Source: an uncultured Cellvibrionales bacterium (GTDB taxonomy: Bacteria; Pseudomonadota; Gammaproteobacteria; Pseudomonadales; CAWVSB01). Taken from it: a DNA stretch of 64,000 nt. Shown in pieces: positions 13,969 through 28,383 of this stretch (positions are counted from its first letter, which is position 1; each line of letters opens with the position of its first letter). The position numbers and the translations under genes are program-made. The notes below the pieces were generated by a model. It was not told the origin of the DNA and did no database searches. It worked only from the letters and a program-made list of their open reading frames with translations. The DNA is taken from the NCBI GenBank assembly GCA_963933215.1, contig CAWVSB010000010.1, forward strand, positions 32,256 to 96,255, read 5' to 3'.

Positions 13969-14421
13969 ATGGCGATCAAATCGATACCCGCTGAACAAGA
14001 GATAAGCGCATTGGCCGGGCATCAGTTTACTGGTGGCGACTATACAATAGCCCCTTGGGAAAACTTTTTGCTGACCGATTGTACCGGTGCACAGCTGCTG
14101 CCAAATGGACTAGCCCATCCGGTCGCATTATTTCATATACCGATTGTTGGCGCGGGCACTTCAATCGCTGAAATGTTCGAATTGGGGCAAGCTGAGTCTG
14201 ATCTTTCGATAATAATAGAAAGCTATGACTGGGAAATATTTACTAGCCTAAAAGAACAAACTACCTATCAAGTTAGCGGGAAAATCACTTCAGCTGAGCG
14301 TTGTAAAAATGACCAAAGTCAAACCTATGATCGCATTCAATTCTGTTTTGAACTATGTAATAACCAACGGTTAACTGCGCGCACTACTATCACTTGGCAC
14401 TACACAAGGAACATATTGTGA
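13969..14421 (+). CDS. Hypothetical protein, probable hotdog-fold partner of the MaoC protein
   Basis: Coupled to the downstream gene by a GTGA overlap; LAHPV and beta-rich C-terminus resemble MaoC N-type subunits. Confidence 0.5.
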   Translation: MAIKSIPAEQEISALAGHQFTGGDYTIAPWENFLLTDCTGAQLLPNGLAHPVALFHIPIVGAGTSIAEMFELGQAESDLSIIIESYDWEIFTSLKEQTTYQVSGKITSAERCKNDQSQTYDRIQFCFELCNNQRLTARTTITWHYTRNIL

Positions 14422-14825
14422 ACTTAACACCAGGCGACAAAATACCAGCATGGATAATGCCAAACGTAAGCAGTGAGCGGATGAAGACTATGGCAGCAAT
14501 TCTGCGTGACCCTAACCCGCTGCACTGGGACAGAGACGCTGTTGCCTCTCTGCCGCTAGGTCTAGGACAGCGCACTATAAATCAAGGACCATTAGGGTTA
14601 AGTTATATGGTTAATATGTTGCATGCGTGGCGTGGCCCAGAGTGCATACGACGCCTTGTGATGCGCTTCCCGCAAGTGGTGTTAGACGGTGAAGAAGTGA
14701 TTGCCAATGGCATCGTCACTGCAGTAACCATAGATGATGGTGTAGCAATAGCCGAGTGTGATATTTGGTTATCGCATGCCGACCGCGGCACCTTGCTAGA
14801 AGGCAGCGCACTGGTTGTAATTTAA
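14418..14825 (+). CDS. MaoC family (R)-hydratase/dehydratase
   Basis: Hydratase motif DPNPLHWD and INQG. GTG start at 14418 with AAGGA RBS. Confidence 0.8.
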   Translation: MNLTPGDKIPAWIMPNVSSERMKTMAAILRDPNPLHWDRDAVASLPLGLGQRTINQGPLGLSYMVNMLHAWRGPECIRRLVMRFPQVVLDGEEVIANGIVTAVTIDDGVAIAECDIWLSHADRGTLLEGSALVVI

Positions 14826-15034: not shown

Positions 15035-16057
15035 TTACTGTGTTTTGGCCAAAAGATTTGCGGCGGCGTTGAAAATTATTTGAGTCTCTGCCGGTAATCG
15101 ACCTGGCCCTCCTGCAATATGGCCAAAATCAGACTGCAGTATTTGACAGTCGAGCCCTAGATCATTTGCGTCTTGACGGGCATCAGCCGCAGTAAAATAT
15201 AAATCACTGCTCGACGGCATCATCATACCGGGGCAGGCTAATTGCTGCACTACCCGCCCACTGCGTTGGTTAGACCCTATGATGTTGCTATCCTGCCACG
15301 TTCGTAACTGCAGGAGCAGATCGTTAGCGTCCTGCTCTAGGTGATCCTGAACCCAGAATTCCAATAGCTGATCAATAGACTCAAAGCCTAACTCACGATA
15401 CCTGCCATCTCGATAAAAAGGCTGACTATAAGCCCAACCCGCATAAACCTTGGCAAAGGCGGTCAAACCTCGCTTTGGTGGAGCTAAATAGTGGCCATCG
15501 GCAAAATCAGCATCTGCGCTCAGCGCGCTCGCCACACCTTCAAGAAACACTTGATTGTGAGGGTAGCATTTTGCGGTCGCACAAATTGCCAACACACTGC
15601 CAACATGGCCAGGGTATTGATGGGCCCACTGAATTGCCTGCATGCCGCCCATGGACCAGCCCATCACCATGCGAGGCTTGGCATCGAGGAAGCTTACCGC
15701 AAGCAGTTGCCGCTGCGCGCAGACGTTGTCGCCCAGGCTGATCTCAGGGAAATTTGGCCCTGCTTGGGAGCCACTGGTATTGCTGGGTGAACTGGACTCT
15801 CCGGCGCCGAATAAGCAGGGGATGATCAGGCAAAAGTCCTGCCCATAAAAGGGACTCGATGGATCATCCACCCAAGGCTTATTACTAATGCCCTTACCAC
15901 CGTAATAAGTAGGCATGATAATCAGGTTATTTTTTAGTGCGTTAAGCGCACCGAGTTGGTGATAGCAGAGTTTTCCGGTTAGCAGAACTTCGCCACTTGC
16001 CAGTGTAAAGTCGCCTAATTCAAACTCATACTGTTCCCATTCTTGTATATTTTTCAA
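15035..16057 (-). CDS. Alpha/beta hydrolase, homoserine O-acetyltransferase (MetX)-like
   Basis: GDFTLASG, SSSPSN, nucleophile GWSMGGMQA, SDLYF (Asp), FGHIAG (His). TTG start. Confidence 0.8.
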   Translation of the reverse strand: MKNIQEWEQYEFELGDFTLASGEVLLTGKLCYHQLGALNALKNNLIIMPTYYGGKGISNKPWVDDPSSPFYGQDFCLIIPCLFGAGESSSPSNTSGSQAGPNFPEISLGDNVCAQRQLLAVSFLDAKPRMVMGWSMGGMQAIQWAHQYPGHVGSVLAICATAKCYPHNQVFLEGVASALSADADFADGHYLAPPKRGLTAFAKVYAGWAYSQPFYRDGRYRELGFESIDQLLEFWVQDHLEQDANDLLLQLRTWQDSNIIGSNQRSGRVVQQLACPGMMMPSSSDLYFTAADARQDANDLGLDCQILQSDFGHIAGGPGRLPAETQIIFNAAANLLAKTQ

Positions 16058-16092
16058 TGGCTTACCCTCTTTTAACTAACCGATCTAATTAA

Positions 16093-16118
16093 ACATACAA
16101 ATTGGCATGTTTCTTGAA
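16093..16118 (+). promoter_or_regulatory. Sigma54-like promoter of glnT with adjoining ACATACA motif
   Basis: ACATACAAAT-TGGCATG-TTTC-TTGAA; the -12 element reads GA instead of GC. The same upstream motif occurs at the 22.78 kb promoter. Confidence 0.55.
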
Positions 16119-16161
16119 TACTATTAATACAGCAAGAATCATTCCCACTTAAGGAAATCAC

Positions 16162-17514
16162 ATGAAAATTGATCAGTTACAACAACAGTGCCGAGACAAG
16201 GGCATCAAATATGGCATCGCCAGCTATGTGGATGTTCATGGAGCGAGCAAAGGAAAATTTGTGCCGGTCAACCATTTCAAGCAGATGTTTGCTGGTTCTG
16301 AACTGTTTACCGGAGCGGCTCTGGATGGTGTTCCCCAAGATATATCCGATGACGAAGTCGCCGCTATGCCCGATATGGCCTCGATGCAACAATGCCAGTG
16401 GAATCCTGAGTTAGCCTGGTTTGCAAGCGATCTTTACCTGAACGGCAAACCATTTGAAGCCTGCTCTAGAAATATACTCAAGCGCCAATTGGCTAAAGCA
16501 GCATCAATGGGCTACAAATTTAACTTAGGCATAGAAACCGAATTCTTTATTTTGCGACAACTACCAGACGGTAAGGTTGTGCCTTTCAGCAGCCGAGATA
16601 CCCAGGAAAAGCCCTGCTACGATGTGCCCACAATGATGGACAATATTGCCATTATTGATGAATTGGTACAGGCACTTGATGATATGGGCTGGGGTGTTTA
16701 CTCATTTGATCACGAAGACGCCAACGGCCAGTTCGAAATCGACTTTAACTTCAGTGATGCTCTCACCATGGCAGATCGGATTATCTATTTTCGGATGCTG
16801 GCCAATGAAATAGCGCGCAAGCATGGCGCATTCGCAAGCTTCATGCCAAAACCATTTGCCGACCGCACTGGCAGCGGTGCCCACTTCAATATGTCACTTG
16901 CCAATATCGAAACTGGTCAGAATCTGTTCGCAGTAAAGCCTGAAGACGATCGTTACGACTGCGGAGTGTCTGAGTTAGCCTATCAATTTATTGGTGGTAT
17001 TTTGGGGCACGCTAAACCGATCAGTGCGGTAGTGGCGCCGACGGTAAACAGTTACAAACGCCTAGTGCGACAAGGCAGCATGTCTGGCTCTACTTGGGCC
17101 CCTGTGTTCTGCTGTTACGGCAATAATAACCGAACTAATATGTTGCGTATTCCAAGCGCTGGTGCCCGGGTTGAATGTCGCGCACCCGACATTGCTTGTA
17201 ACCCCTATCTGGGGGCAGCAATGCTGCTGGCCGCTGGACTAGAAGGGATAGAGCAGAGTATCGACCCCGGTCTGCCGCACCGAGAAAACATGTACAACTA
17301 TAGTAGCAAGGAAATTGACGACGCCGGAATCGAGTGTTTACCGAGAAACCTGTCGGAGGCAACTGATGCCATAGCCGGGGATGCGCTGGCCTATAGCGTA
17401 TTGGGGGCAGACATGCACAAAGCTTTTGTCGACTTCAAGCGTGGTGAGTGGGATAGCTATCATAACACTGTATCCGATTGGGAGATGCAGCGTTACCTGC
17501 GTCAGTTTGGCTAG
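16162..17514 (+). CDS. glnT: Type III glutamate--ammonia ligase (GlnT; gamma-glutamyl-amide synthetase family)
   Basis: YVDVHGASKGKFVP, LGIETEFF, DHEDANGQFE, FMPKPF, GSGAHFNMS, PTVNSYKRL, NNRTNMLR, RVECRAPD...NPYL. The SGSTWAP insert is typical of GlnT. Confidence 0.88.
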   Translation: MKIDQLQQQCRDKGIKYGIASYVDVHGASKGKFVPVNHFKQMFAGSELFTGAALDGVPQDISDDEVAAMPDMASMQQCQWNPELAWFASDLYLNGKPFEACSRNILKRQLAKAASMGYKFNLGIETEFFILRQLPDGKVVPFSSRDTQEKPCYDVPTMMDNIAIIDELVQALDDMGWGVYSFDHEDANGQFEIDFNFSDALTMADRIIYFRMLANEIARKHGAFASFMPKPFADRTGSGAHFNMSLANIETGQNLFAVKPEDDRYDCGVSELAYQFIGGILGHAKPISAVVAPTVNSYKRLVRQGSMSGSTWAPVFCCYGNNNRTNMLRIPSAGARVECRAPDIACNPYLGAAMLLAAGLEGIEQSIDPGLPHRENMYNYSSKEIDDAGIECLPRNLSEATDAIAGDALAYSVLGADMHKAFVDFKRGEWDSYHNTVSDWEMQRYLRQFG

Positions 17515-17602
17515 TAAAAACTGGGGCCTGAGATTATCCACGGCGTTGACCTTTGTAGGCGGCATCACTAGACTAATTTTTTTTGCACAAACTGAACTGG
17601 AC

Positions 17603-18214
17603 ATGAGACGAACTAAGGAAGATGCAGCAAAGACTCGTCAGAGTTTGATTGACGCCGCCTTAAATATTTTTGGCCAGCGCGGCTACAGTGGTACAACTCT
17701 GCGCCTTATTGCGCAGGAGGCCGGCTGTTCGCGGGGCCCAATCTATTGGCATTTTGCTAACAAAGAAGAACTGTTCGAGGAGATTCTTGCATACTCTCAG
17801 GCACCACTGGAGCAATTGGTGGCGCAGCAGCAGAACAGCAGCGATCCCGAGGATGCCGCTGATAACTTTTCGCGGCAATGGTTGCGTTTGCTGATAGACG
17901 ATACCTACTTTCGTCAATCCTTCGAGATTTTCTTAAACAAAACCGAGTTCACAGAAGCCTTGTCAAAAACCTTGGAACGGGAGCGAGCACTAACTGCTTC
18001 ATTAATTGTGATGTTTTCATCATGGGTTACGATTTATCGCAAACAAGAGAACGTAACCGCAGCAAGTGCCAGTGATACTGTGGCGCTATCGATGTATGCT
18101 TACTTAATGGGTATTACCCAAAGCTGGTTATTCGACTCAAAAATCACCGACTTAGATAATAATTTGGATTTTTTTGTCGGCGAGTTTCTTCGACTACTAC
18201 GAACACTCAAGTGA
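17603..18214 (+). CDS. TetR/AcrR family transcriptional regulator
   Basis: MRRTKEDAAKTRQSLIDAA...IAQEAGCSRGPIYWHFANK (AcrR/TtgR-like). Start reassigned from 17381 to ATG 17603. Confidence 0.88.
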   Translation: MRRTKEDAAKTRQSLIDAALNIFGQRGYSGTTLRLIAQEAGCSRGPIYWHFANKEELFEEILAYSQAPLEQLVAQQQNSSDPEDAADNFSRQWLRLLIDDTYFRQSFEIFLNKTEFTEALSKTLERERALTASLIVMFSSWVTIYRKQENVTAASASDTVALSMYAYLMGITQSWLFDSKITDLDNNLDFFVGEFLRLLRTLK

Positions 18215-18991
18215 TTGCGAACGCATCATTTTCCTTATATCACGCTCGAGTTGTCGATATTCACTAACGTCAAGAATAGCATCACGATCGGTGCTACTCC
18301 TATCAAAACTGGGTCGGATAGTTTCTATAATGCGGCCAGGGCGTGTGCCCATGAAAAAAACGACATCGCCTAAATAGAGTGCCTCTTCTATGTCGTGTGA
18401 AACCATCAGTACCGTGGTGCGTTCCTTTTTGACGATTTCTAATAACAGGCTTTGCATTTGCCAACGCGTTTCCGGGTCGAGGGCACCAAATGGCTCATCC
18501 ATTAGCAATATGGAGGGGCTGCCTACTAGACTTCTAGCGATAGCAACTCGCTGCTGCATTCCGCCTGATAGCTGATGGGGATAAGCTTTTTCAAAGCCAC
18601 CTAATTTTACTGCTTGGATAAAATGGTCGACAACACCTGCGCGTAAAGTGCGCGATTCATGCCTAGCTTTTAGTCCAAAAGCCACGTTCTCTTCCACGGT
18701 TAACCAGGGAAAAGAACTATAATTTTGAAACACCATGCCGCGATCCACTCCTGGACCATGGATAGATTTGCCGGCGACTGAAATATCGCCCTGCTCCTGA
18801 CTTTCGAGCCCGGCGACTATTCTCAGCAAGGTTGATTTACCGCAACCTGACGGGCCCAGCAACACCCCTACGGAGTTCTGCTCTAGCTCAAAGTTTATAT
18901 TATCCAACGCTTTGAGCGGTTGGCCCGAGCGCAGCATAAAAGTCTTGCCAACGCCCGAGACCACTAGTCCCTGTTTTTGTTGCTCAATCAT
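18197..18991 (-). CDS. ABC transporter ATP-binding protein (NitT/TauT/SsuB type)
   Basis: GPSGCGKST, LSGGMQQR, LLMDEPFGALD, VSHDIEEA. Confidence 0.92.
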   Translation of the reverse strand: MIEQQKQGLVVSGVGKTFMLRSGQPLKALDNINFELEQNSVGVLLGPSGCGKSTLLRIVAGLESQEQGDISVAGKSIHGPGVDRGMVFQNYSSFPWLTVEENVAFGLKARHESRTLRAGVVDHFIQAVKLGGFEKAYPHQLSGGMQQRVAIARSLVGSPSILLMDEPFGALDPETRWQMQSLLLEIVKKERTTVLMVSHDIEEALYLGDVVFFMGTRPGRIIETIRPSFDRSSTDRDAILDVSEYRQLERDIRKMMRSQSLECS

Positions 18992-20013
18992 TTAGTCAGC
19001 GCCGCTGCCAGCGGTGCTGTATCTACGCCAGCAGACATTGGCATTGCCTTGTCAACAAAACCAAATTGCAGCCACCAGTCGGTGGTAACATCCCAATGAG
19101 CCTTCATTCCATCAGCAATAATATTAAGCGGTAGTTTGCCAGGTTTAAGACCCATAAAAATAGCCGCCTGATCGCGATCAAAAATGAATATCCCACCCTT
19201 ATGAATTTCACCAGTACTGCCAAGTACTTGCTCAACATCTGCCACCGAAAACTTTAAACCATCGGCGATAATCTGATTCGCTTCAGCAGTATTTTCTTTC
19301 CAAAAATCAACTGCATTAAAATAAGCGCGGGTCAGCTTTGCCGCATCTTCAGGCCGCTTATCAAGAAATGCCGTACTCATATACATGGCATCGCCAAGCA
19401 TCGCCGTGGTGATGTATTTCTCTTCAGTTGAGTCTGCCGCTACTGTCGAACCTGGCAGAGCCTCAAGCACCTGAGAGCCAAACGGTTCCCAAAATTCAGC
19501 CGCTGCTGCAGTGCCGCCAATCATTGCACCAACAGCGTCGTCCATGATCAAATTAGTAAAGCTAACCTCATCAATTCCTACGCCGTTATCAGCCAACCAC
19601 TCGGCCATAAAGATTTGGGTCAGGCCACCTTCAAGTACTGCCACCGTTTTACCTTTAAGCTGCTGGGCACTGGTTATGCCAGGTGCCAAAATTATTTTGT
19701 CGGTGCCATAAGATGGATTGGTATAGGTTACCAGTTTGATACCCACGTCTTTATCTGCCGCAATCGGCCCGTACTCTGCCGTGCTGGAGGTTGCGTCGAG
19801 ACCGCCGGCAGTCATCATGCCAAAGCTTTGGTAAGGGTCTTCAATAATGCTAATCTCTAGTTCTAAACCCTCAGTAAGGCCTTTTTCTTTGGCGATAAAC
19901 CAAAATCCATAGCCCGGCCATGAGAACAGCGATAGTTTCACGGGTTCCGAACTTTGCGCAGTGGAGCACAGTGCGAGTGCCAGAATGGCAATGCCTAATC
20001 GAATATGATGCAT
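18988..20013 (-). CDS. ABC transporter substrate-binding protein (NitT/TauT family)
   Basis: Signal peptide MHHIRLGIAILALALCSTAQS, SWPGY, SYGTDKI, LKGKTVAV, WEPF. Start at 20013 with GAGGAG RBS. Confidence 0.85.
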   Translation of the reverse strand: MHHIRLGIAILALALCSTAQSSEPVKLSLFSWPGYGFWFIAKEKGLTEGLELEISIIEDPYQSFGMMTAGGLDATSSTAEYGPIAADKDVGIKLVTYTNPSYGTDKIILAPGITSAQQLKGKTVAVLEGGLTQIFMAEWLADNGVGIDEVSFTNLIMDDAVGAMIGGTAAAAEFWEPFGSQVLEALPGSTVAADSTEEKYITTAMLGDAMYMSTAFLDKRPEDAAKLTRAYFNAVDFWKENTAEANQIIADGLKFSVADVEQVLGSTGEIHKGGIFIFDRDQAAIFMGLKPGKLPLNIIADGMKAHWDVTTDWWLQFGFVDKAMPMSAGVDTAPLAAALTK

Positions 20014-20038
20014 GGTGATTCTCCTCGGTTTATGGTTA

Positions 20039-20854
20039 CTACTTATTGATTTCAAGATAACGAAACGCACTGCGATGCAGCGCTTTAAATAAGGCATCAA
20101 ATAACAGACCAAGCAGGCCGATAACTAAAATACCCGCCATGATGTCATCGACATGAACAAATCGTTTTGCGCGCATCATCATGGCGCCAATACCGTCGGT
20201 GGCTGCCACAATTTCGGCGATTACCAAATAGGTCCAGCTGACGGCCAGCAGTTGTCGAAACACGTCGACATAGCCCGCCATGCTTGCTCTGAAAATAACC
20301 GAGCCCAGTATTTGAATCGGTCGCAAACCCAACGTTTTGGCTGTTTCTATGTAAACCTTGGGCACTTGGCGCGTCACATCGGCGATCATGATGATCAAGA
20401 AGAACAGAACGCCAATAACTAGCAGGGCAATTTTTTGTGCTTCGCCAGTACCCAGCCACATTAGTAGTAGCGGGATAAATGCCGGCGCTGGCAGGTAGCG
20501 AAACGTCCCCGCCAAGGGGCCCAACAGACGATCAACAGGTCGATACGCGCCGATCAGTAGGCCAAATGGCAATGCCAGCAACACTGCAATAGAGAAACTC
20601 GTTAAAATACGTTTAACGCTGGCCCATATATCAGCCGCAAACTCTTTCTCTGCTAGCAATTCATACAGGCTGATGAAAACCCTATCTGGCCCCGGGAATA
20701 ATCGCTCTGGCGCCAGCTCCGCGTTGGCGGCAAGCCACCAGCCGACGACAAATAGAGCCCAGCCCAACGAACCTAAAAATAGCTTAGAGCCGAGCACCGC
20801 GACCAGCGACGCCGTGGGTTTAACCATTACAGTGGCGGTATCCATGCGTGGCAT
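20039..20854 (-). CDS. ABC transporter permease (NitT/TauT family)
   Basis: FRYLPAPAFIPLLLMWLGTGE, EAA-like IETAKTLGL, SWTYLVIAEIVAA. Confidence 0.9.
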   Translation of the reverse strand: MPRMDTATVMVKPTASLVAVLGSKLFLGSLGWALFVVGWWLAANAELAPERLFPGPDRVFISLYELLAEKEFAADIWASVKRILTSFSIAVLLALPFGLLIGAYRPVDRLLGPLAGTFRYLPAPAFIPLLLMWLGTGEAQKIALLVIGVLFFLIIMIADVTRQVPKVYIETAKTLGLRPIQILGSVIFRASMAGYVDVFRQLLAVSWTYLVIAEIVAATDGIGAMMMRAKRFVHVDDIMAGILVIGLLGLLFDALFKALHRSAFRYLEINK

Positions 20855-21868
20855 CTAGAACGCGGTAAGAAAGCTGAGTGCATCGGCGCCAACGGCTCGA
20901 CCTTGTTTAAGCGATTCTTTTACTTCATCAGCGCCATAATCGTCGGCATAAATTCGAGCCAGCCGATGTTTATGAAAGGCGCGGGCTTGCTCCATAAAGC
21001 CCAGAGTCTGCGATTCAACTGCCGGTAACATTTTGGCATGCAGGGTCGGCAGTCGATACCACCCCAGCGTAGGTTTTTCGTGGTGGGCGTTGTGATAGCA
21101 AAAATTTAATACCAGCAAATTGAGCTTAGGAAAGCGAGCAGATAACAGATTGCTATAGGTGTTGCGCTGCTCATACGCTGTGTCTCCGCGGTAGGGACGC
21201 GCAACCTCTTTATCCTCGAGATTGAATACCACTTCGTAATTGTGCTGATAGCAATCCATGAAGCGTAAAGCAGTGAATAACAGCAATTGCGCCAGCGCAT
21301 ACAAAAAGAAAGCGACAGCACTGTAGAAGAATATCACCGCCAACAAACTGGCACGAATTGCCAGCACCTGCAGCACGCGGCGACGCTGCCCACGCTTTGA
21401 CTCGATGCACCATGGGGCTGCGACTAGCATTGTGTGCATCATGATTTCGACAGCAGGAATATAGACCCATTCTGCCCCTTTCACGACGACTTCCAGCCGC
21501 GGGCGGTTCTTCAAAAAGCGGCGGTAATCCCACACCACGGGGTCATAGTTATCAACATGATGCCGCATGTGCTTGTAACGAATATCTTCATAACGTCCAT
21601 AGCAGCTACCGGCTATCCAGTTAAGCACTTTGCCCAAGTGAGCATTTCTAGTGGTCGATAAAAACACCGTATTGTGACCGCAGTCGTGAAGCAGATACGC
21701 TGCAATCAACATACTGTGTGCCAAAGCAATCACGCCAATAATATTGCTCGCTACACTGCCCTGAAGAATGGCAATCCAGCCACCAATATAGGTGATGGCA
21801 ATATAAAGTAATACCGCCGCCGTGTAGCCCACCCCAGCAGGGTCGCGCAGTTCAAGAAATTTAAGCAT
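20855..21868 (-). CDS. Membrane di-iron fatty acid desaturase/hydroxylase family protein
   Basis: Three His boxes HDCGH, HMRHH, HNAHH plus TM segments. ATG at 21868 overlaps the upstream stop. Confidence 0.85.
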   Translation of the reverse strand: MLKFLELRDPAGVGYTAAVLLYIAITYIGGWIAILQGSVASNIIGVIALAHSMLIAAYLLHDCGHNTVFLSTTRNAHLGKVLNWIAGSCYGRYEDIRYKHMRHHVDNYDPVVWDYRRFLKNRPRLEVVVKGAEWVYIPAVEIMMHTMLVAAPWCIESKRGQRRRVLQVLAIRASLLAVIFFYSAVAFFLYALAQLLLFTALRFMDCYQHNYEVVFNLEDKEVARPYRGDTAYEQRNTYSNLLSARFPKLNLLVLNFCYHNAHHEKPTLGWYRLPTLHAKMLPAVESQTLGFMEQARAFHKHRLARIYADDYGADEVKESLKQGRAVGADALSFLTAF

Positions 21869-22733
21869 GCTGAGCTTCCTGTTGAACCGACGCTTGTGAC
21901 CAAGTCTCAAAGTGATTCTGTTCAGTGGCACCAATCCAGCGGTTAAGATCCCAGAGGTCAGCGATTGGCGCGTTGGTGAAGGGCAGATGATGCAAGTATC
22001 CGTCGGGACCAAACTCAGGCGTCATCGTCGTTTCTTTATAGCCACGGGATTTTTGCGCAAGCCAGACCGCTTCCCAGCACCGTTGATGGCTGGCGAGAGC
22101 CTCGCCATATTCAGGCGCGCCGGGATGTGGCACTTGCGGACCTTGGTCGTAACCAACGCGGCTGTGCACATGGTGTGCATGCTTTGCCGCAAGCTCAATG
22201 GCATCCCATTCACTGTCCATGAGGCGCTCACACACAACGACCCAATGACTAAAATCACAGGTTATTTTGATGTCGGGGATTTGCCCAAGCACAGCCATGG
22301 TATTCCATGGGCTGAAAAAGGGGCGGCCACGATGGGTCTCGAATGAGCAGACAACACTATGCTTGTCGGCGATATCCATTGCCGCCTTAAAAAAATCAAC
22401 ACTAGTACTAACCGGCCATGCATCACAGCCCCCCATCACGTTGACAAACTTGGGGCCCAGTGGCTTGCCAATAAGAATCTGTGATTCAAGGTCTGCTAGG
22501 TGCTCGCTTACACTGGCATGTCTTCTAGGAACGTAAGAACCTGCGGTACAGATTTCCTGCACCCACTGCAGATTATGTTCATTTAAGCTTTTATGCAGTG
22601 CCGGTAAATGGGCCGAGTTTTCGTCGACTGCCGGGGCCTCAAGCCCCGCGAAGCCAGCGGCTTTTGCCAGCACGGCAGCTTCTTCTATGCTGCCGGTATG
22701 CCCCCAAAGCGTTTTAAATGTAAGTAATTGCAT
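21861..22733 (-). CDS. Sugar phosphate isomerase/epimerase (xylose-isomerase-like TIM barrel) family protein
   Basis: AGFAGLE, FETHR, CDFSHW, HVHSRVG, TPEFGP metal-ligand pattern. Confidence 0.8.
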   Translation of the reverse strand: MQLLTFKTLWGHTGSIEEAAVLAKAAGFAGLEAPAVDENSAHLPALHKSLNEHNLQWVQEICTAGSYVPRRHASVSEHLADLESQILIGKPLGPKFVNVMGGCDAWPVSTSVDFFKAAMDIADKHSVVCSFETHRGRPFFSPWNTMAVLGQIPDIKITCDFSHWVVVCERLMDSEWDAIELAAKHAHHVHSRVGYDQGPQVPHPGAPEYGEALASHQRCWEAVWLAQKSRGYKETTMTPEFGPDGYLHHLPFTNAPIADLWDLNRWIGATEQNHFETWSQASVQQEAQHA

Positions 22734-22771
22734 GATCTTGCCTCAACACTGCATGTGACTGAGGTTAAAAC

Positions 22772-22812
22772 TGCAATAACTATGCCAATCTGTATGTATA
22801 AATCTATCATAC
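22772..22812 (-). promoter_or_regulatory. Sigma54 promoter of the isomerase-desaturase-ABC operon, with an upstream GTATG-N11-CATAC inverted repeat
   Basis: Minus strand reads GTATGatagatttataCATACAGAT-TGGCATA-GTTA-TTGCA. Confidence 0.75.
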
Positions 22813-22873
22813 TGATTAATAACTAGTTTTTGTGATTTTTGAGGTATCTGGCAGTATCGCCCACTAGGCTGCA

Positions 22874-22912
22874 TGCACCGATAGTGACGATAATGCGTGC
22901 CCTTTTGGTGCG
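22874..22912 (-). promoter_or_regulatory. Tandem degenerate NtrC-like boxes
   Basis: TGCACCGATAGTGACGA (22874-22890) and CGTGCCCTTTTGGTGCG (22896-22912). Outer half-sites are intact, spacing is 22 bp, about 90-125 bp upstream of the sigma54 site. Confidence 0.5.
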
Positions 22913-23105: not shown

Positions 23106-23537
23106 CTAATCTATAGCTATAGTAATTTCGTTAAGGCCTGACTTAACCTCAATACTCGCCTCGTGAAAATTAGGCGGACCAAAAGCGCCCATCGGTGCGG
23201 AAAACCCAAATGGCTCTTGAGGATAACCAATAAAATTAGTGTCCAATTCATCGTTAGCGTTTACATCATGGAAAATAGACAAGGCGTAGCTGCCTGTAGG
23301 AATGTCTTCAATTAACAGAAACACTTCTGCTTCACCACTAACGGCTTGGCTGGCTTCAGCGAAAGACACAGTATCAGCTTCTGTGCTCAACCAATCATCG
23401 GCGTTGTCAAAAACAGCAACCACAATACTGCCGCTGTCATGGGTAATGCCGGAAACAGTTATCGCTAAACTACTCTGTTGAGCAAACGCTATATTGGTCG
23501 TAAGCAATAAACTCAAGACTAAAAGAACCTTTTCCAT
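23106..23537 (-). CDS. DUF2141 family secreted protein
   Basis: Signal peptide; GSYALSIFHDVNANDELDTNFIGYPQEPFGFS. Confidence 0.85.
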   Translation of the reverse strand: MEKVLLVLSLLLTTNIAFAQQSSLAITVSGITHDSGSIVVAVFDNADDWLSTEADTVSFAEASQAVSGEAEVFLLIEDIPTGSYALSIFHDVNANDELDTNFIGYPQEPFGFSAPMGAFGPPNFHEASIEVKSGLNEITIAID

Positions 23538-23605
23538 ATTCTACCTATCAGCATAATTTTTATTAATAACAGTTAGTAAAAATGCGAGCATTACTCGGCT
23601 TTTAC

Positions 23606-25039
23606 TTAGTTGCCTTGACGCCAGGTACCGTGAAATCCGGCAGGTACATTATGCGACAACCGCACTACAGCTAAAGGTCCTTTCGATAGTGCTAGTGCAT
23701 CGAAAATATATAAGCTACTGGTATGGGTTTCAAAACTGCTGCCAACCGTCAATAAAAACCCTTCGCCTTCTGCAGCATTCTCTGACTTTGGCACAAACAA
23801 TGCTTCGGAAGCAGTACTTTGCCCTAGCGAATAACGATCATCTTTGCCAGTCTCATGGTCAAAGTGTCCAACTACATTAAAAAAGTGATCGGCATCTTTG
23901 CTTATCGTACTCGCCAATTCACCGTCAGGCGAGACATACCAACCGTGACGATAAGGCTTACCCAAATAGCGTAAATCACACTGGGGAAACTCTGATTCAT
24001 AGTCGTCGATTTTTTCAAATTCGACTCGCGGATTGTCTGCATTCATATCGATAGTCCAGCGATGCAAATACGGAATCGCCTTACCACTCTCACTGCCATC
24101 CACCAGCGGAAACAACGGGGCATGAGTGAGCTGGCAACAATCAACAGTGATGACCCCATCTTGATCAAAGCCATTCATAAAGTGAAATACAAATGACAAA
24201 TCCATATCCAGCCACTGGATGTTTTCAGCATTACCGCCGTGACGCGCTAAAATACCTATTTTTACTGGCAGATCTGGCTCCCATGCAAATGGGGCTCCAC
24301 CTTCCATCGCCCGCTCTAAACTGCCAGAGATCGGAAATACTGGAATCAAAATATAATTATCAGTGATAACAAAATCATGAATCATCGAAGAATACGGTGC
24401 CGGAATATGAATACTTTCCGTCAACACACCAGCAGGGTTTACTTTATGCAACATCACATCTGGGGCAAATGGGCCTGTTGCCATATAGGCAAAGAAAATC
24501 ATCTCACCAGTAACGGGATCTATCTTAGGGTGCGCTGTCATGGCCGTATGTAACTTGCCGCGGAACGACCAACTGCCTATTGATTCCAAGGTGACTGGGT
24601 CTATCTCGTAAGGCCTATGCCCCTCTTCCAGCGCCAATAATCTGTCGCCATGCCAAACCATAGCGGTATTGGCTAAGCCTTCTTTATCCACCAATACAAA
24701 ATCACTATATTCTGGCTCACAATCAAAAGGGTTCATCGCATTAACTAATGCCCGACCTTCTTTTGCTTCCATATTAAACTTGGCGGTACGCACCCAGCGG
24801 TTGTTATAGCTAGCTTTACCGTCTTTGATATGAAACGCATGCACCATGCCGTCGCCAGCAAACAAATGATATTCACCTCTTGGTGCATAACGTTGATTTG
24901 GGCCATTACGATACAAACTCCCATGTAACTCAGGCGGTATTTCACCCTCAACAACTAAATCATGAGCATCGCATTCCATCTGAATAGGGCCAAATGGAAA
25001 CTGCAAAAATGGATTATCGCTGGGCATTGGCTTAGCCAT
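23606..25039 (-). CDS. Carotenoid/stilbene cleavage oxygenase family protein (lignostilbene dioxygenase-like)
   Basis: GEIPPELHGSLYRNGPN, GDGMVH, four Fe-His motifs TAHPK, MIHDF, VFHF, GFHG; EFP. Confidence 0.9.
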   Translation of the reverse strand: MAKPMPSDNPFLQFPFGPIQMECDAHDLVVEGEIPPELHGSLYRNGPNQRYAPRGEYHLFAGDGMVHAFHIKDGKASYNNRWVRTAKFNMEAKEGRALVNAMNPFDCEPEYSDFVLVDKEGLANTAMVWHGDRLLALEEGHRPYEIDPVTLESIGSWSFRGKLHTAMTAHPKIDPVTGEMIFFAYMATGPFAPDVMLHKVNPAGVLTESIHIPAPYSSMIHDFVITDNYILIPVFPISGSLERAMEGGAPFAWEPDLPVKIGILARHGGNAENIQWLDMDLSFVFHFMNGFDQDGVITVDCCQLTHAPLFPLVDGSESGKAIPYLHRWTIDMNADNPRVEFEKIDDYESEFPQCDLRYLGKPYRHGWYVSPDGELASTISKDADHFFNVVGHFDHETGKDDRYSLGQSTASEALFVPKSENAAEGEGFLLTVGSSFETHTSSLYIFDALALSKGPLAVVRLSHNVPAGFHGTWRQGN

Positions 25040-25058
25040 GTAGTTATCCTTGGTTAGT

Positions 25059-25109
25059 TGTTGACAGTGTAAACATTAGCAGTAAGACTGTATGTTTACA
25101 ATAGTAACA
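25059..25109. promoter_or_regulatory. Pair of palindromic operators between the oxygenase and TetR genes
   Basis: TGTTGACAGTGTAAACA (25059-25075) and TGTTTACAATAGTAACA (25093-25109). Confidence 0.65.
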
Positions 25110-25159
25110 TTCGTCTCAGTTTGGTATTATGAGCATCGGTCTTCCAATTAGAGTTATCT

Positions 25160-25774
25160 ATGCAAGCCAACAAAACTACTTACCACCACGGAGATTTGAG
25201 GTCAGCACTACTCGATGCCGCACTTACAGTGATCAACGAAGCTGGCTCAAGCCAGTTAACAATCCGTGAAGTAGCAAGACGAGCTGGGGTTTCTCATACC
25301 GCACCCTACCGACATTTTGCTGACAAAGATGAACTCATTGTGGCAGTTGTAGAGCAAGGCTTTGAGCTGCTCCAGCAAACGATGCAAGCAGAAAAGGACG
25401 CAGCCGCCAAAGACCCTATAAGCCAATTCGCCGCATCTGGCACCGCTTATATAGACTTTGCTTTACAGCACCCTGCTTATTATCGCGTTATGTATAGCGG
25501 CGATTTATTAACCAGCGACGGCCATGAAAGCTTACAACATACTAGCTCAAATACATTTGCCCAAATGGTCGACGACATAACGACCTGCCAGCAACTGAAT
25601 ATAGTTAAGTCGGGCAACCCAGCCCTTCAAGCCTTAGCCATACTTTCTACCGTCCATGGCTTTGTCACCATGGTTAACGACAATCGGGTAAATGCCCTAC
25701 TCGGTCAGAATCCAGACATTAATGCTGTGCGCGACATGATTATGACTTCTATCTTTGAGGGTTTAGGAACTTAG
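25160..25774 (+). CDS. TetR/AcrR family regulator (WHG-like C-terminus)
   Basis: YHHGDLRSALLDAA, REVARRAGVSHTAPYRHFADK, STVHG. Confidence 0.9.
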   Translation: MQANKTTYHHGDLRSALLDAALTVINEAGSSQLTIREVARRAGVSHTAPYRHFADKDELIVAVVEQGFELLQQTMQAEKDAAAKDPISQFAASGTAYIDFALQHPAYYRVMYSGDLLTSDGHESLQHTSSNTFAQMVDDITTCQQLNIVKSGNPALQALAILSTVHGFVTMVNDNRVNALLGQNPDINAVRDMIMTSIFEGLGT

Positions 25775-25827
25775 CGACTGAGCCATAAAGGCTGCTGCTA
25801 GCGTGATCGCTGTAACACTTATAAAAA

Positions 25828-25850
25828 AAACAGTCATTACCGTTTGTTTT
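25828..25850. promoter_or_regulatory. Palindromic operator, copy 2 (AAACAGTCA-TTAC-CGTTTGTTT)
   Basis: 18 of 23 positions match the 37727 copy; sits upstream of the TonB receptor. Confidence 0.55.
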
Positions 25851-25977
25851 TAAAAGACCCCTTTGCTAGTATCTTAAATATACAGAATATTCTGCGCACA
25901 AAGAATCTTATGACGTAGCTGTATTAGTAATGCAACACAAAACCACCACCACTAAAAATTATAAAACGGTGTTAATA

Positions 25978-28383
25978 ATGAAAATATCTACTCCTGCTCT
26001 AGCGACTCTTGTGCTTTCATCTTTTATTACGGCCCAAGTAAACTCACAAGAGAACGCAGATAAAATGGGCTTCGCCTTAGAAGAAGTTATTGTAACTGCC
26101 AACAAACGGGTACAAAGCCTGCAAGAAGTCCCGATGTCGGTAAGCGCGTTTACCGAAGACTTTCTCAGAGACTCTGGGTTAACCAACTTTGCAGACCTGC
26201 AGCAATATGCACCTAACTTAAAAATATCAACAACTGCCAGTACCGCATCCACCTCTGTACGTATTAGAGGCATCGGCTCTGTCGGCACTAACTCGGGCAT
26301 AGACCCAAGTGTCGGCATGTTTATAGATGGCGTTTATCAAGGTCGAGCGGGCATGAGCGTAGCCGACCTTGTTGATATCGAACGAATTGAAGTATTGCGC
26401 GGCCCACAGGGAACTTTATATGGCAAGAACACCGCCGCTGGTGCCATCAGCATTATTACTCGCCGTCCTAATGACATCTTTGAAGGTCTGTTAGAGCTCA
26501 CTTACGCCAACGACAACCGCATCGAAGCTCGCGGTATGGTTAACATCCCCTTCGGCGATACTGAAAATGCTATGCGCGTAAGTGGCTATGTCGTCAATGG
26601 TGACCATATCTATGAAAATGAATTTAATGGCGAAGGCCTAAACGACGCCAACAAGTGGGGCCTCAGAGCACGAACATTATTGGTAGCTAGTGACACTAGC
26701 GAATGGTTATTAACCGTCGATTATAGTGAAGAAGACACCGATTGCTGCGGTATTGCGGTAATTGATTACGACGGTTTATCAACCCTTGGTACACCCACCT
26801 TAAATGCAGCGTCAGCTGCCTATCAACAAGGACTAATTGACGCTAACAACGGCTCTTCATTACCTTTTAACTCATTTGAAGATACCGAAGCTATTTCACC
26901 ACCTACTGCTGACCCATTTGACGATAACTATTGGGTAGATGGCGAAACCACTAATAAAGTAACAGTTGGCGGGGTTGCAGTTGAATGGAACAAAGACTTT
27001 GCCAACAACAGCTCACTCACTTTCATCAATGCATGGCGTAATTATTCGTCAGACTCGTTCTATGATGGTGACTTTACCGGCCACGATGCGGTATCGGGTT
27101 CCACCGAAGTTGAGCTGGATCAATACTCATCAGAAATCAGACTAGCCTCTGAATCTGGCAATACGGTTGAATATCAAGTTGGTTTATTTGGCTACTATTC
27201 AGAATTTGACTCCCTCGGCAAGTTTGCCCAAAGCAAACTGTTAATTGATAAAATTGGCCTTGGCGGACTTTATTCAAATGGCACTTTAAATACCGACGAT
27301 AACTTATATACCACCACCAGTGGCGCGGCGTTTGGTCAACTAACGTGGAATATGTCTGAAGAATTAAGCGCAACCTTTGGCTTGCGCTATACCTATGAGA
27401 AAAAAGAACGCGATGGTTCGCAAGTTACAACGCCGGACCCCGAAGGAGGGATAGTTGCACCTAACTTACCCCCTATTGCCGGGCCAAATTATTTCACTGT
27501 TGTTGATCGCAGCGATACAGCAGTCTCGCCAATGATCAACATTCGTTACTTCTTAACAGAAGATATAATGACTTACGCTAGTATCAGCCGAGGCTTTAAA
27601 TCCGGTGGTTTTAACCAACGCCGTGAAGCAACGCTGCCTGACGGCACCGCGCCATCGGGTGAGTTTGAAGAAGAGATCGCCACTAACTATGAAATGGGGT
27701 GGAAAGGTTCTTGGCTAGATCGGCGTTTGCAAGTAAACGGCACGTTCTTCTATGTTGAATATGACGATTTTCAATCGCAAGGTTTTGACGGCTCGACGGT
27801 CAAAGTAACCAACGCTGGATCAATGGAAAGTTATGGTAGTGAACTAGAAATTGTGTATTTACCGGCGGCCAATTTAACGTTAGGTTCTGCTTTAGGCTAT
27901 ACCCATGCGACTTATAGCGACTTTAAAAATGGCGAATGTACAGTCGCCGACAATTATGACTTAACCTTTTACCAAAATACTAACTTTCTTGCCCCTGCGC
28001 TCGCCGGGGAAGCATGTACGAAAGATCTTACTGGCGAACAACTAGATAATGTGCCCGAATGGACTGTCGCCACTTTTGCACAATATAAAATAGAACTGAA
28101 TGAGAATCTAAATGGAACTATTCGTCTAGAGCATAGTTATACAGATTCATTCTTTTTAGATGTGGATCTTGACCCAAATCTTGAAAACGATGCAGTTAAT
28201 CTATTCAACCTTAGATTGTCCCTAGCGAATGAAAATTTAGACTGGGAAGTCGCCGCTTGGATGCGCAACATAACTGATGAAGAATACTTCGCTATCGGCC
28301 AAGACATACCAGTTTTGGGCGGCTATATCGGCGTTGCAGCTCCAGAAAGAACTTATGGTGCCACCCTGAGACTATTCTTCTAA
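25978..28383 (+). CDS. TonB-dependent receptor
   Basis: Signal peptide, TonB box LEEVIVTA, plug motif IERIEVLRGPQGTLYGKNTAAG, C-terminal RTYGATLRLFF. Start 25978 or 25930. Confidence 0.92.
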   Translation: MKISTPALATLVLSSFITAQVNSQENADKMGFALEEVIVTANKRVQSLQEVPMSVSAFTEDFLRDSGLTNFADLQQYAPNLKISTTASTASTSVRIRGIGSVGTNSGIDPSVGMFIDGVYQGRAGMSVADLVDIERIEVLRGPQGTLYGKNTAAGAISIITRRPNDIFEGLLELTYANDNRIEARGMVNIPFGDTENAMRVSGYVVNGDHIYENEFNGEGLNDANKWGLRARTLLVASDTSEWLLTVDYSEEDTDCCGIAVIDYDGLSTLGTPTLNAASAAYQQGLIDANNGSSLPFNSFEDTEAISPPTADPFDDNYWVDGETTNKVTVGGVAVEWNKDFANNSSLTFINAWRNYSSDSFYDGDFTGHDAVSGSTEVELDQYSSEIRLASESGNTVEYQVGLFGYYSEFDSLGKFAQSKLLIDKIGLGGLYSNGTLNTDDNLYTTTSGAAFGQLTWNMSEELSATFGLRYTYEKKERDGSQVTTPDPEGGIVAPNLPPIAGPNYFTVVDRSDTAVSPMINIRYFLTEDIMTYASISRGFKSGGFNQRREATLPDGTAPSGEFEEEIATNYEMGWKGSWLDRRLQVNGTFFYVEYDDFQSQGFDGSTVKVTNAGSMESYGSELEIVYLPAANLTLGSALGYTHATYSDFKNGECTVADNYDLTFYQNTNFLAPALAGEACTKDLTGEQLDNVPEWTVATFAQYKIELNENLNGTIRLEHSYTDSFFLDVDLDPNLENDAVNLFNLRLSLANENLDWEVAAWMRNITDEEYFAIGQDIPVLGGYIGVAAPERTYGATLRLFF

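Follow-up and report, generated by a model that had tools for sequence, protein, structure and literature searches.

What is a protein of the fatty-acid-desaturase fold doing between a nutrient importer and a glutamine synthetase (GS)-like ligase? The question is raised by a 64,000-nucleotide stretch of contig CAWVSB010000010.1 (the window) from an uncultured Cellvibrionales bacterium, whose genome, labelled G000 in our counts, is 98.8% complete. Eight intact genes lie side by side at positions 15035–22733 and belong to the families that a first-pass annotation of the window had named. They form two modules, one comprising a triosephosphate isomerase (TIM) barrel, the desaturase-fold protein and an ATP-binding cassette (ABC) importer, and the other a hydrolase, the ligase GlnT and a TetR-type regulator (Table 1). 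The annotation had taken the locus for an undescribed, probably nitrogen-regulated scavenging system, and this description is supported: the genes co-occur, and an operator-like motif is common to both modules. It had overlooked the guanidine carboxylase hub to which the locus is linked, and with it a published analogue, MgdH/MgdL (available part of PMC12508155). From the sequence comparisons, we give an even chance to the reading that the locus, under the control of nitrogen supply and TetR, feeds the carboxylase pathway with substituted guanidines.

The link to guanidine comes from the genomes that carry homologues of the locus. CgdA/B, members of the TIGR03424 deiminase family, are encoded in 61 of 64 carrier genomes (a list that counts one genome twice), compared with 39 of 400 background genomes; by group, they occur in 57/60 desaturase-bearing genomes and in all four GlnT genomes that have no desaturase, the carriers without them being G015, G218, and G445. 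Within genus g24 (111 genomes, including Marinobacter-titled loci), CgdA/B are present in 45 genomes, and all 33 GlnT genomes and all 11 desaturase genomes lie within those 45. GlnT is embedded in a carboxylase cluster in 20 of the 20 clusters read, and in several relatives (L023 and L211 among them) window-type genes and guanidine carboxylase genes are all found in one cluster. The eight window genes do not include any core gene of the carboxylase pathway, which the bacterium encodes elsewhere, on contig C17, as gca, cgdAB, and atzF, together with a TIGR03427 substrate-binding protein (SBP) and both guanidine-I and guanidine-II riboswitches. Riboswitches also connect the homologues themselves to guanidine: a guanidine-I riboswitch operon contains a desaturase homologue (L014), a guanidine-II riboswitch lies 12 bases before another (L083), and a guanidine-I riboswitch heads an importer–creatininase–GlnT operon with a clade-B GlnT (L151).

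The modules are frequently associated with each other, and each can also stand without the other. In 83 desaturase loci (the best 80 of 560 confirmed genome matches and three from relatives), the TIM barrel is found within ~10 kb in 68, the SBP in 56, a GS-like gene in 25 (one of them a distant paralogue), and the hydrolase in 22. A match to TIGR03105, the family of GlnT, is present in 44 of 60 desaturase-carrier genomes (from 50 of the 80 loci plus 10 further genomes, two genomes being counted twice), compared with 15 of 400 in a sample spread evenly over phyla; where GlnT does not adjoin the desaturase, it is found elsewhere together with the hydrolase and TetR. The neighbourhood co-occurrence looked for in the annotation is thus seen for the TIM barrel and GlnT, but GlnT often occurs without the desaturase. 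In g24, the desaturase is present in 11/111 genomes, GlnT in 33/111, and both in 10, leaving GlnT and hydrolase without the desaturase in 23 of the 33, as is also the case in four of the six such genomes of the even phylum sample; 16 of the 60 desaturase-homologue genomes have no GlnT. The annotation's single linear route, in which a small amine would be glutamylated, oxidised, rearranged, and hydrolysed, is not upheld by this distribution, and because 23/33 g24 GlnT genomes lack the desaturase, no such single line is required. A conserved oxygenase was not seen in the 20 clusters read among those 23 genomes. A Rieske oxygenase was considered as the sink in desaturase-less genomes and rejected: the Halieaceae-type gene occurs in 1/56 genomes and in 0/45 of g24, as judged with a single query that leaves room for other Rieske types. 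In the bacterium itself, the guanidine operon is immediately preceded by a Rieske oxygenase gene broken into two pieces, of about 109 and about 208 codons (G000:C17:34940-36019, L203), and intact orthologues adjoin the hydrolase in the close relatives L015, L016, L017, and L056, often with a lactonase-like gene of the metallo-beta-lactamase fold.

The closest published system is that of Vreelandella boliviensis, in which MgdH hydroxylates methylguanidine to a stable hemiaminal and MgdL, described as narrowly specific for N-(hydroxymethyl)guanidine, splits this product into guanidine and formaldehyde (PMC12508155). Both systems combine an oxygenase and a second enzyme tied to an ABC importer and the carboxylase pathway, and both are linked to that pathway and to guanidine riboswitches, which for the present locus are found in relatives and elsewhere in the genome, outside the window. 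However, MgdH is a 2-oxoglutarate dioxygenase and MgdL a beta-barrel, whereas the window encodes a non-homologous membrane di-iron fold and a TIM barrel; the window locus shows sigma54, NtrC, and TetR signals in place of riboswitches, and has an extra ligase–hydrolase arm. The window genes would do the same kind of work as MgdH/MgdL, yet they fall outside that system. The proteome table of V. boliviensis contains no type III ligase, and its creatininase is uninduced, so that it has no bearing on GlnT.

Gene swaps tie the two systems together. MgdL-like genes directly follow the desaturase in L212 and L259 and are present in five TIM-less desaturase operons, while G194, which has no desaturase, has a 2-oxoglutarate dioxygenase beside an MgdL-like gene within its GlnT operon. 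The G194 gene, of 263 residues, resembles by eye the MgdL alignment in the available part of PMC12508155 and has its Asp-x-Arg motif; queries with this gene and with the G194 dioxygenase gave no match in G000. It is mainly because of these swaps that we predict N-alkyl hydroxylation as the most likely activity of the desaturase-fold protein, and hemiaminal cleavage as that of the TIM barrel. At the G194 locus (L149, G194:C3:1138500-1158400), a TIGR03427-like SBP, an EamA transporter, the MgdL-like gene, the dioxygenase, a lactonase-like gene, a creatininase-like gene, a clade-B GlnT, and the carboxylase operon follow one another in one run, which brings an MgdH/MgdL-like pair together with GlnT. 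A different desaturase operon (L082, L088, L157, L159, and L160) contains an SBP, the desaturase, one or two short-chain dehydrogenases/reductases (SDRs), a creatininase family member, a BiuH-like amidase, a lactonase-like gene, an MgdL-like gene, and ABC genes; its enzymes might oxidise a cyclic guanidine and then open the ring, or proceed via an N-formylguanidine. At a further locus (L013), the TIM–desaturase pair follows formaldehyde-detoxification-like genes.

The His-box residues of the desaturase-fold protein are invariant in 22 and 21 aligned rows, and its model (pLDDT 87) is a membrane di-iron fold that superposes on 8xks_K (Z 18.3, root-mean-square deviation 4.0, 281 aligned residues) and on AlkB 8sbb_A (Z 11.1, 5.0, 253 aligned). 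Its sole family match is PF00487, and no curated NCBIfam lipid-desaturase or carotenoid-oxygenase family comes near its cut-off (best 24.8 bits vs. 350). The TIM barrel belongs to PF01261, and its model (pLDDT 90) resembles metal-dependent epimerases and dehydratases, with a Foldseek E-value of 5e-9 to sugar 3-epimerases. Over 20 aligned rows, Glu132, Asp160, and Glu240 are invariant and His190 is kept in at least 90%; by their motif positions, these four residues presumably form the metal site, and several arginines are conserved besides them. Single-sequence PDB searches with the TIM barrel and the SBP found nothing, profile searches gave distant matches only, and an ESM Atlas search returned unnamed isomerase clusters only.

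GlnT scores 568.8 bits against TIGR03105 (cut-off 469.6), stays below the cut-off of the PuuA family NF045547 (266.7 vs. 650), and has GmaS proteins as its closest solved relatives (RhGmaS 7cql and 9qur). The annotation had called for a phylogeny against GmaS, PuuA, and IpuC; set against GmaS in a quick tree of 72 rows, GlnT clades A and B form their own branch, sister to and apart from the mgs-linked GmaS (support 99), and PuuA was compared by family score. With residue roles taken from PMC7948447, the GmaS catalytic set (Lys30', Tyr147, Asp177, Glu179, Glu186, Trp300, and Arg312) is kept in 43/43 clade-A rows, while in all 53 rows of clades A and B, Thr occupies the Asp50' position and Trp that of the Glu flap. 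By alignment, GlnT thus lacks the ammonium-site residues of GS; in the same 53 rows, Gln175 is replaced by Ser and Asn188 by Asp, and at these two positions GlnT resembles GS type I-alpha rather than GmaS. For this reason, the changes in the amine pocket were not taken to prove that the substrate is cationic and bulkier.

GlnT shares with GmaS the catalytic residues and the lost ammonium-site residues, but differs from the GmaS/N-methylglutamate (NMG) system in its separate clade, its hydrolase partner, its guanidine context, and the missing mgsABC and mgdA. The annotation had noted that mgsABC is not in the window, and no orthologue of mgsA, mgsB, mgsC, or mgdA was found in the whole genome either, so that methylamine use through the NMG pathway was rejected; NMG synthase (mgsC) occurs in only 4/64 carrier genomes. 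What accompanies GlnT instead is a hydrolase: the MetX-like hydrolase adjoins it in 61/66 clade-A sequences and a creatininase-like hydrolase in 10/10 clade-B sequences, so that some hydrolase is adjacent in 71 of 76, and in four of the five misses the end of the locus cuts off the neighbourhood. This pattern suggests that GlnT must be paired with a hydrolase for amide- or ester-type bonds, whichever of the two folds it has. Clade-A GlnT is, moreover, often accompanied by its own TIGR03427 paralogue. The hydrolase falls below the MetX cut-offs (TIGR01392/NF001209; 90.2 vs. 500 and 83.3 vs. 331), and its nearest solved relatives by far are PDB 5e4y/5efz (E 1e-67) and 5d6o/5d7b (2e-64), the next being at 2e-27. 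We take these structures to be the esterases MekB and CgHle, an assignment on which a paper search found nothing, while their PDB label is homoserine O-acetyltransferase. AtzF is present in 56/57 genomes, so that the hydrolase or GlnT as a stand-in for allophanate hydrolase was rejected. With NMG synthase in 4/64 genomes, no conserved oxygenase, and AtzF in 56/57, the GlnT–hydrolase pair appears to supplement the carboxylase pathway in some way that involves no oxygenase, and no sink is known there for gamma-glutamylmethylamide.

Promoter motifs point to common control of the two modules. Both promoters had been called sigma54-type, and this applies to that of the TIM barrel gene, which has one mismatch to the sigma54 consensus; the genome holds 328 such sites, and the canonical form, under a strict pattern, is present in 30 of 69 regions upstream of TIM homologues. 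The glnT promoter is only sigma54-like, as its -12 word is without GC in 41/41 homologues. The tandem NtrC-like boxes reported for the window have 5 and 6 mismatches out of 14 and, taken alone, are no better than chance, the genome having 5,649 sites with five mismatches on one strand; however, boxes with at most three mismatches occur in 25/69 homologous TIM upstream regions, compared with 0.4% of shuffles, and NtrC is encoded in the genome. The scavenging system is, to judge from these signals, probably nitrogen-regulated. In addition, a 15-base pattern common to both window promoters has exactly two occurrences in the whole genome, and is part of a palindrome, ACATRC-N6-GCATGT, present in 40/41 glnT upstream regions. 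A matrix trained on the glnT sites, with the spacer ignored, ranks the glnT site first in the genome, a circular result because the matrix was built with it; the TIM site comes second, by a margin of no more than 0.1 over the hit below it. Scores of at least 11 are reached in 42/69 TIM upstream regions vs. 0.3% of shuffles, including genomes in which the modules lie far apart. From the adjacency of its gene, TetR is the predicted binder of the shared site, and both modules likely belong to one TetR regulon. At L025 and L026, a TetR gene stands beside the TIM–desaturase pair, and glnT is not there.

In the feeder that we propose, an N-alkylated guanidine would enter through the importer under nitrogen starvation and be hydroxylated at the N-alkyl carbon by the di-iron enzyme; from the hemiaminal so formed, the TIM barrel would release guanidine and an aldehyde. 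Methyl- or dimethylguanidine is the most likely substrate, with formaldehyde as the product. Ammonia would finally be set free by the enzymes encoded on contig C17, namely guanidine carboxylase, CgdAB, and allophanate hydrolase. A second arm of the TetR regulon, working without the oxygenase, would consist of GlnT and the hydrolase; as a best guess, a guanidine-type compound, or a small amine derived from it, is gamma-glutamylated by GlnT, and an acylguanidine is deacylated by the hydrolase.

Several findings weigh against this proposal. The window has no Rfam match, and hence no riboswitch, and the cluster contains no ferredoxin or reductase gene as an electron donor. The window SBP is just 23% identical to the guanidine-type TIGR03427 SBP of the same genome, scores 39.5 against the TIGR03427 cut-off of 333.9, and has taurine and sulfonate binders as its nearest solved relatives. 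The MgdL likeness is a by-eye match to a supplementary alignment (PMC12508155), and the G194 dioxygenase is a candidate MgdH orthologue. The desaturase carriers G015 and G218 are without CgdA/B, and a sister desaturase clade lies mostly away from the pathway, with a carboxylase-like match in 2/80 metagenome loci (the best 80 of 566 confirmed matches, many of their contigs being short). Ten of the 11 g24 desaturase genomes have GlnT, as might also be expected if the oxygenase worked on a glutamylated compound, although this nesting is not significant when the comparison is confined to the CgdA/B genomes of g24 (p=0.13). Finally, because the genomes are kin, the counts overstate independence.

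The first alternative, an unlikely one in our estimate, keeps the annotation's order, in which glutamylation comes first, in the manner of aniline dioxygenase. GlnT would glutamylate a small amine, one example being the methylamine that the carboxylase route releases from methylguanidine; the resulting gamma-glutamylmethylamide would be demethylated by the di-iron enzyme and TIM barrel, with glutamine and formaldehyde as products, while the hydrolase would keep the amide pool low. The presence of GlnT in ten of the 11 g24 desaturase genomes, the conserved GmaS catalytic set, the rarity of NMG synthase as a sink, the operator-like site common to both modules, and the precedent in the available part of PMC11335346 would all fit such a route. 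However, the 23 g24 genomes with GlnT and no desaturase have neither a conserved oxygenase in the 20 clusters read nor the Halieaceae-type Rieske gene, for which reason the amide would be a dead end there; desaturase homologues are also found under guanidine riboswitches in genomes without GlnT (L014 and L083), and the dedicated importer points to an external substrate.

A bolder version of the feeder is about as tentative as the glutamylation-first route. Here, GlnT would acylate guanidine or methylguanidine to a gamma-glutamyl-guanidine opened by the hydrolase, a third bacterial route to guanidine nitrogen beside carboxylation and nickel-dependent hydrolysis, and the desaturase-fold protein would be a di-iron N-demethylase of the membrane, with the TIM barrel as its hemiaminal lyase. 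If this were true, part of the gmaS counts of ocean surveys, taken as methylamine use, would represent guanidine metabolism.

Somewhat more doubtful is a guanidino acid (creatine, guanidinoacetate, or taurocyamine) as the substrate, oxidised at the carbon beside the guanidino nitrogen, with the TIM barrel acting as an alpha-hydroxyglycine-type lyase that yields glyoxylate (or sulfoacetaldehyde) and (methyl)guanidine, to be finished by GlnT, the hydrolase, and the carboxylase pathway. The nested distribution, from CgdA/B through GlnT to the desaturase, fits such an upstream add-on, the TIM metal tetrad and conserved arginines would suit an alpha-hydroxy acid, the SBP class includes taurine binders, and creatininase-family genes neighbour the desaturase in related operons. 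By contrast, the TIM barrel gives way in some operons to MgdL, whose narrow specificity is for N-(hydroxymethyl)guanidine (PMC12508155), L013 has the formaldehyde-detoxification-like neighbours named above, and no glyoxylate genes recur in the 83 loci.

It is very improbable that GlnT is an ordinary extra GS capturing ammonia from the guanidine pathway beside an unrelated hydrolase, since the TIGR03105 name (type III glutamate-ammonia ligase) and the GS I-alpha-like positions 175 and 188 are set against the Thr and Trp replacements in 53/53 rows (roles from PMC7948447, available part) and the hydrolase beside 71/76 GlnT sequences. Equally remote is a desaturase that acts on membrane lipids, with the modules as chance neighbours in a nitrogen island: database names do call the protein a fatty acid desaturase, in line with its only family match, and homologues stand alone in ammonia oxidisers, but most loci show translational coupling of its gene with those for a lyase-like enzyme and the importer (TIM 68/83, SBP 56/83), a riboswitch directly precedes one homologue, curated lipid families are far from their cut-offs, and the operator-like site is common to both modules even where they are far apart.

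Other known systems share parts of this design. The glutamylation routes of PuuA and IpuC bring a GS-like ligase, a hydrolase, and an oxygenase together in one locus, as in the window. The same is true of the aniline/naphthylamine dioxygenase AtdA1-A5 (available part of PMC11335346). Unlike in all of these routes, the window-type ligase and hydrolase persist without any conserved oxygenase. The rhizopine oxygenase MocD is a desaturase-fold protein described as converting 3-O-methyl-scyllo-inosamine (3-O-MSI) into scyllo-inosamine (SI) (available part of PMC2593844); the role predicted for the window protein would likewise put this fold to work on a small molecule, but the window has no ferredoxin, reductase, or inositol genes. 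No paper on the combination of desaturase, TIM barrel, and GlnT was found in the open-access full texts searched, and the available parts of PMC12186494, PMC11410670, PMC12623156, PMC2593844, and bioRxiv 10.1101/356014 do not describe the gene set.

The sources and fates of substituted guanidines in nature have been called an open question (PMC12508155, available part), and the locus offers four enzymes, one binding protein, and one putative repressor site with which to approach it, in culturable marine genera; Haliea salexigens and Marinobacter salinexigens are among the carriers. If the proposal is true, small-molecule N-dealkylation would join the functions of the membrane desaturase fold. 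As gmaS serves as a marine marker of methylamine use (PMC7948447, available part), it also matters that TIGR03105/gmaS matches are not all methylamine markers: six of the 15 in the even sample of 400 genomes fall in guanidine-linked clades.

Table 1. Genes and control elements of the locus (window coordinates).
Feature	Position	Strand	Remarks
MetX-like alpha/beta hydrolase, PRK07581-like (below cut-off)	15035..16057	-	Ser135-Asp285-His313 triad; fixed partner of its GlnT clade
Palindromic operator-like site (16091-16112) overlapping the sigma54-like glnT promoter	16091..16118	+	non-canonical -12 word
GlnT, glutamate-amine ligase	16162..17514	+	TIGR03105 above cut-off; sister clade (A) of GmaS
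TetR/AcrR-type repressor	17603..18214	+	likely binder of the shared site, judged by adjacency
ABC ATPase, TauB/SsuB type	18197..18991	-	
NMT1/SsuA-class SBP	18988..20013	-	own clade
ABC permease, TauC/SsuC type	20039..20854	-	
Membrane di-iron oxygenase, fatty-acid-desaturase fold; predicted N-alkyl hydroxylase	20855..21868	-	three His boxes: 61-65, 100-104, 259-263
Xylose-isomerase-like TIM barrel, predicted hemiaminal lyase	21861..22733	-	Glu132, Asp160, His190, Glu240
Sigma54-type importer-operon promoter (22772-22788), overlapped by the shared operator-like site (22778-22799)	22772..22799	-	
Weak NtrC-like boxes	22857..22912		5-6 mismatches; relatives have closer matches at this place

The five-gene operon is closely coupled, as the annotation had stated: the start of the permease gene abuts the desaturase stop, and the SBP stop overlaps the ATPase start. 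The desaturase start was set by homology at 21868, giving a protein of 337 residues and an 8-nt overlap with the TIM gene, and the starts of the SBP (20013) and TetR (17603) were placed in the same way. The tetR and ATPase genes overlap tail to tail by 18 nt (18197-18214), an arrangement also found in close relatives (L126). On one side of the locus (23106-28383) are a DUF2141 gene, a carotenoid-oxygenase (RPE65) family gene, a TetR-like gene, and a TonB-receptor-like gene, and on the other (13969-14825) two small overlapping genes convergent on the hydrolase, the second with a MaoC-like dehydratase domain; neither set is conserved around homologues.

Further arrangements are seen in more distant genomes. 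In the marine sister desaturase clade (L212-L291), a second TIM type is present in 28/80 loci, and the desaturase is often divergent from a PII-like gene of 112 residues (25/80). Ammonia oxidisers with Nitrosomonas and Nitrosospira titles hold the desaturase alone (L072, L073, L077, L084-L086, L089, L091, L093, and L094); in the four such genomes tested, CgdA/B are present and GlnT was not found. Methylophaga-titled genomes (L025, L026, L155, and L169) have, in separate places, a TIM–desaturase–TetR group, which in L025 lies beside a copper amine oxidase gene, an operon of clade-B GlnT that includes a NikR-like regulator, and a GmaS-mgs cluster of the canonical kind. In L032 and L168, two desaturase paralogues share a cluster, one accompanied by SDR and creatininase-like genes and the other by a TIM barrel.

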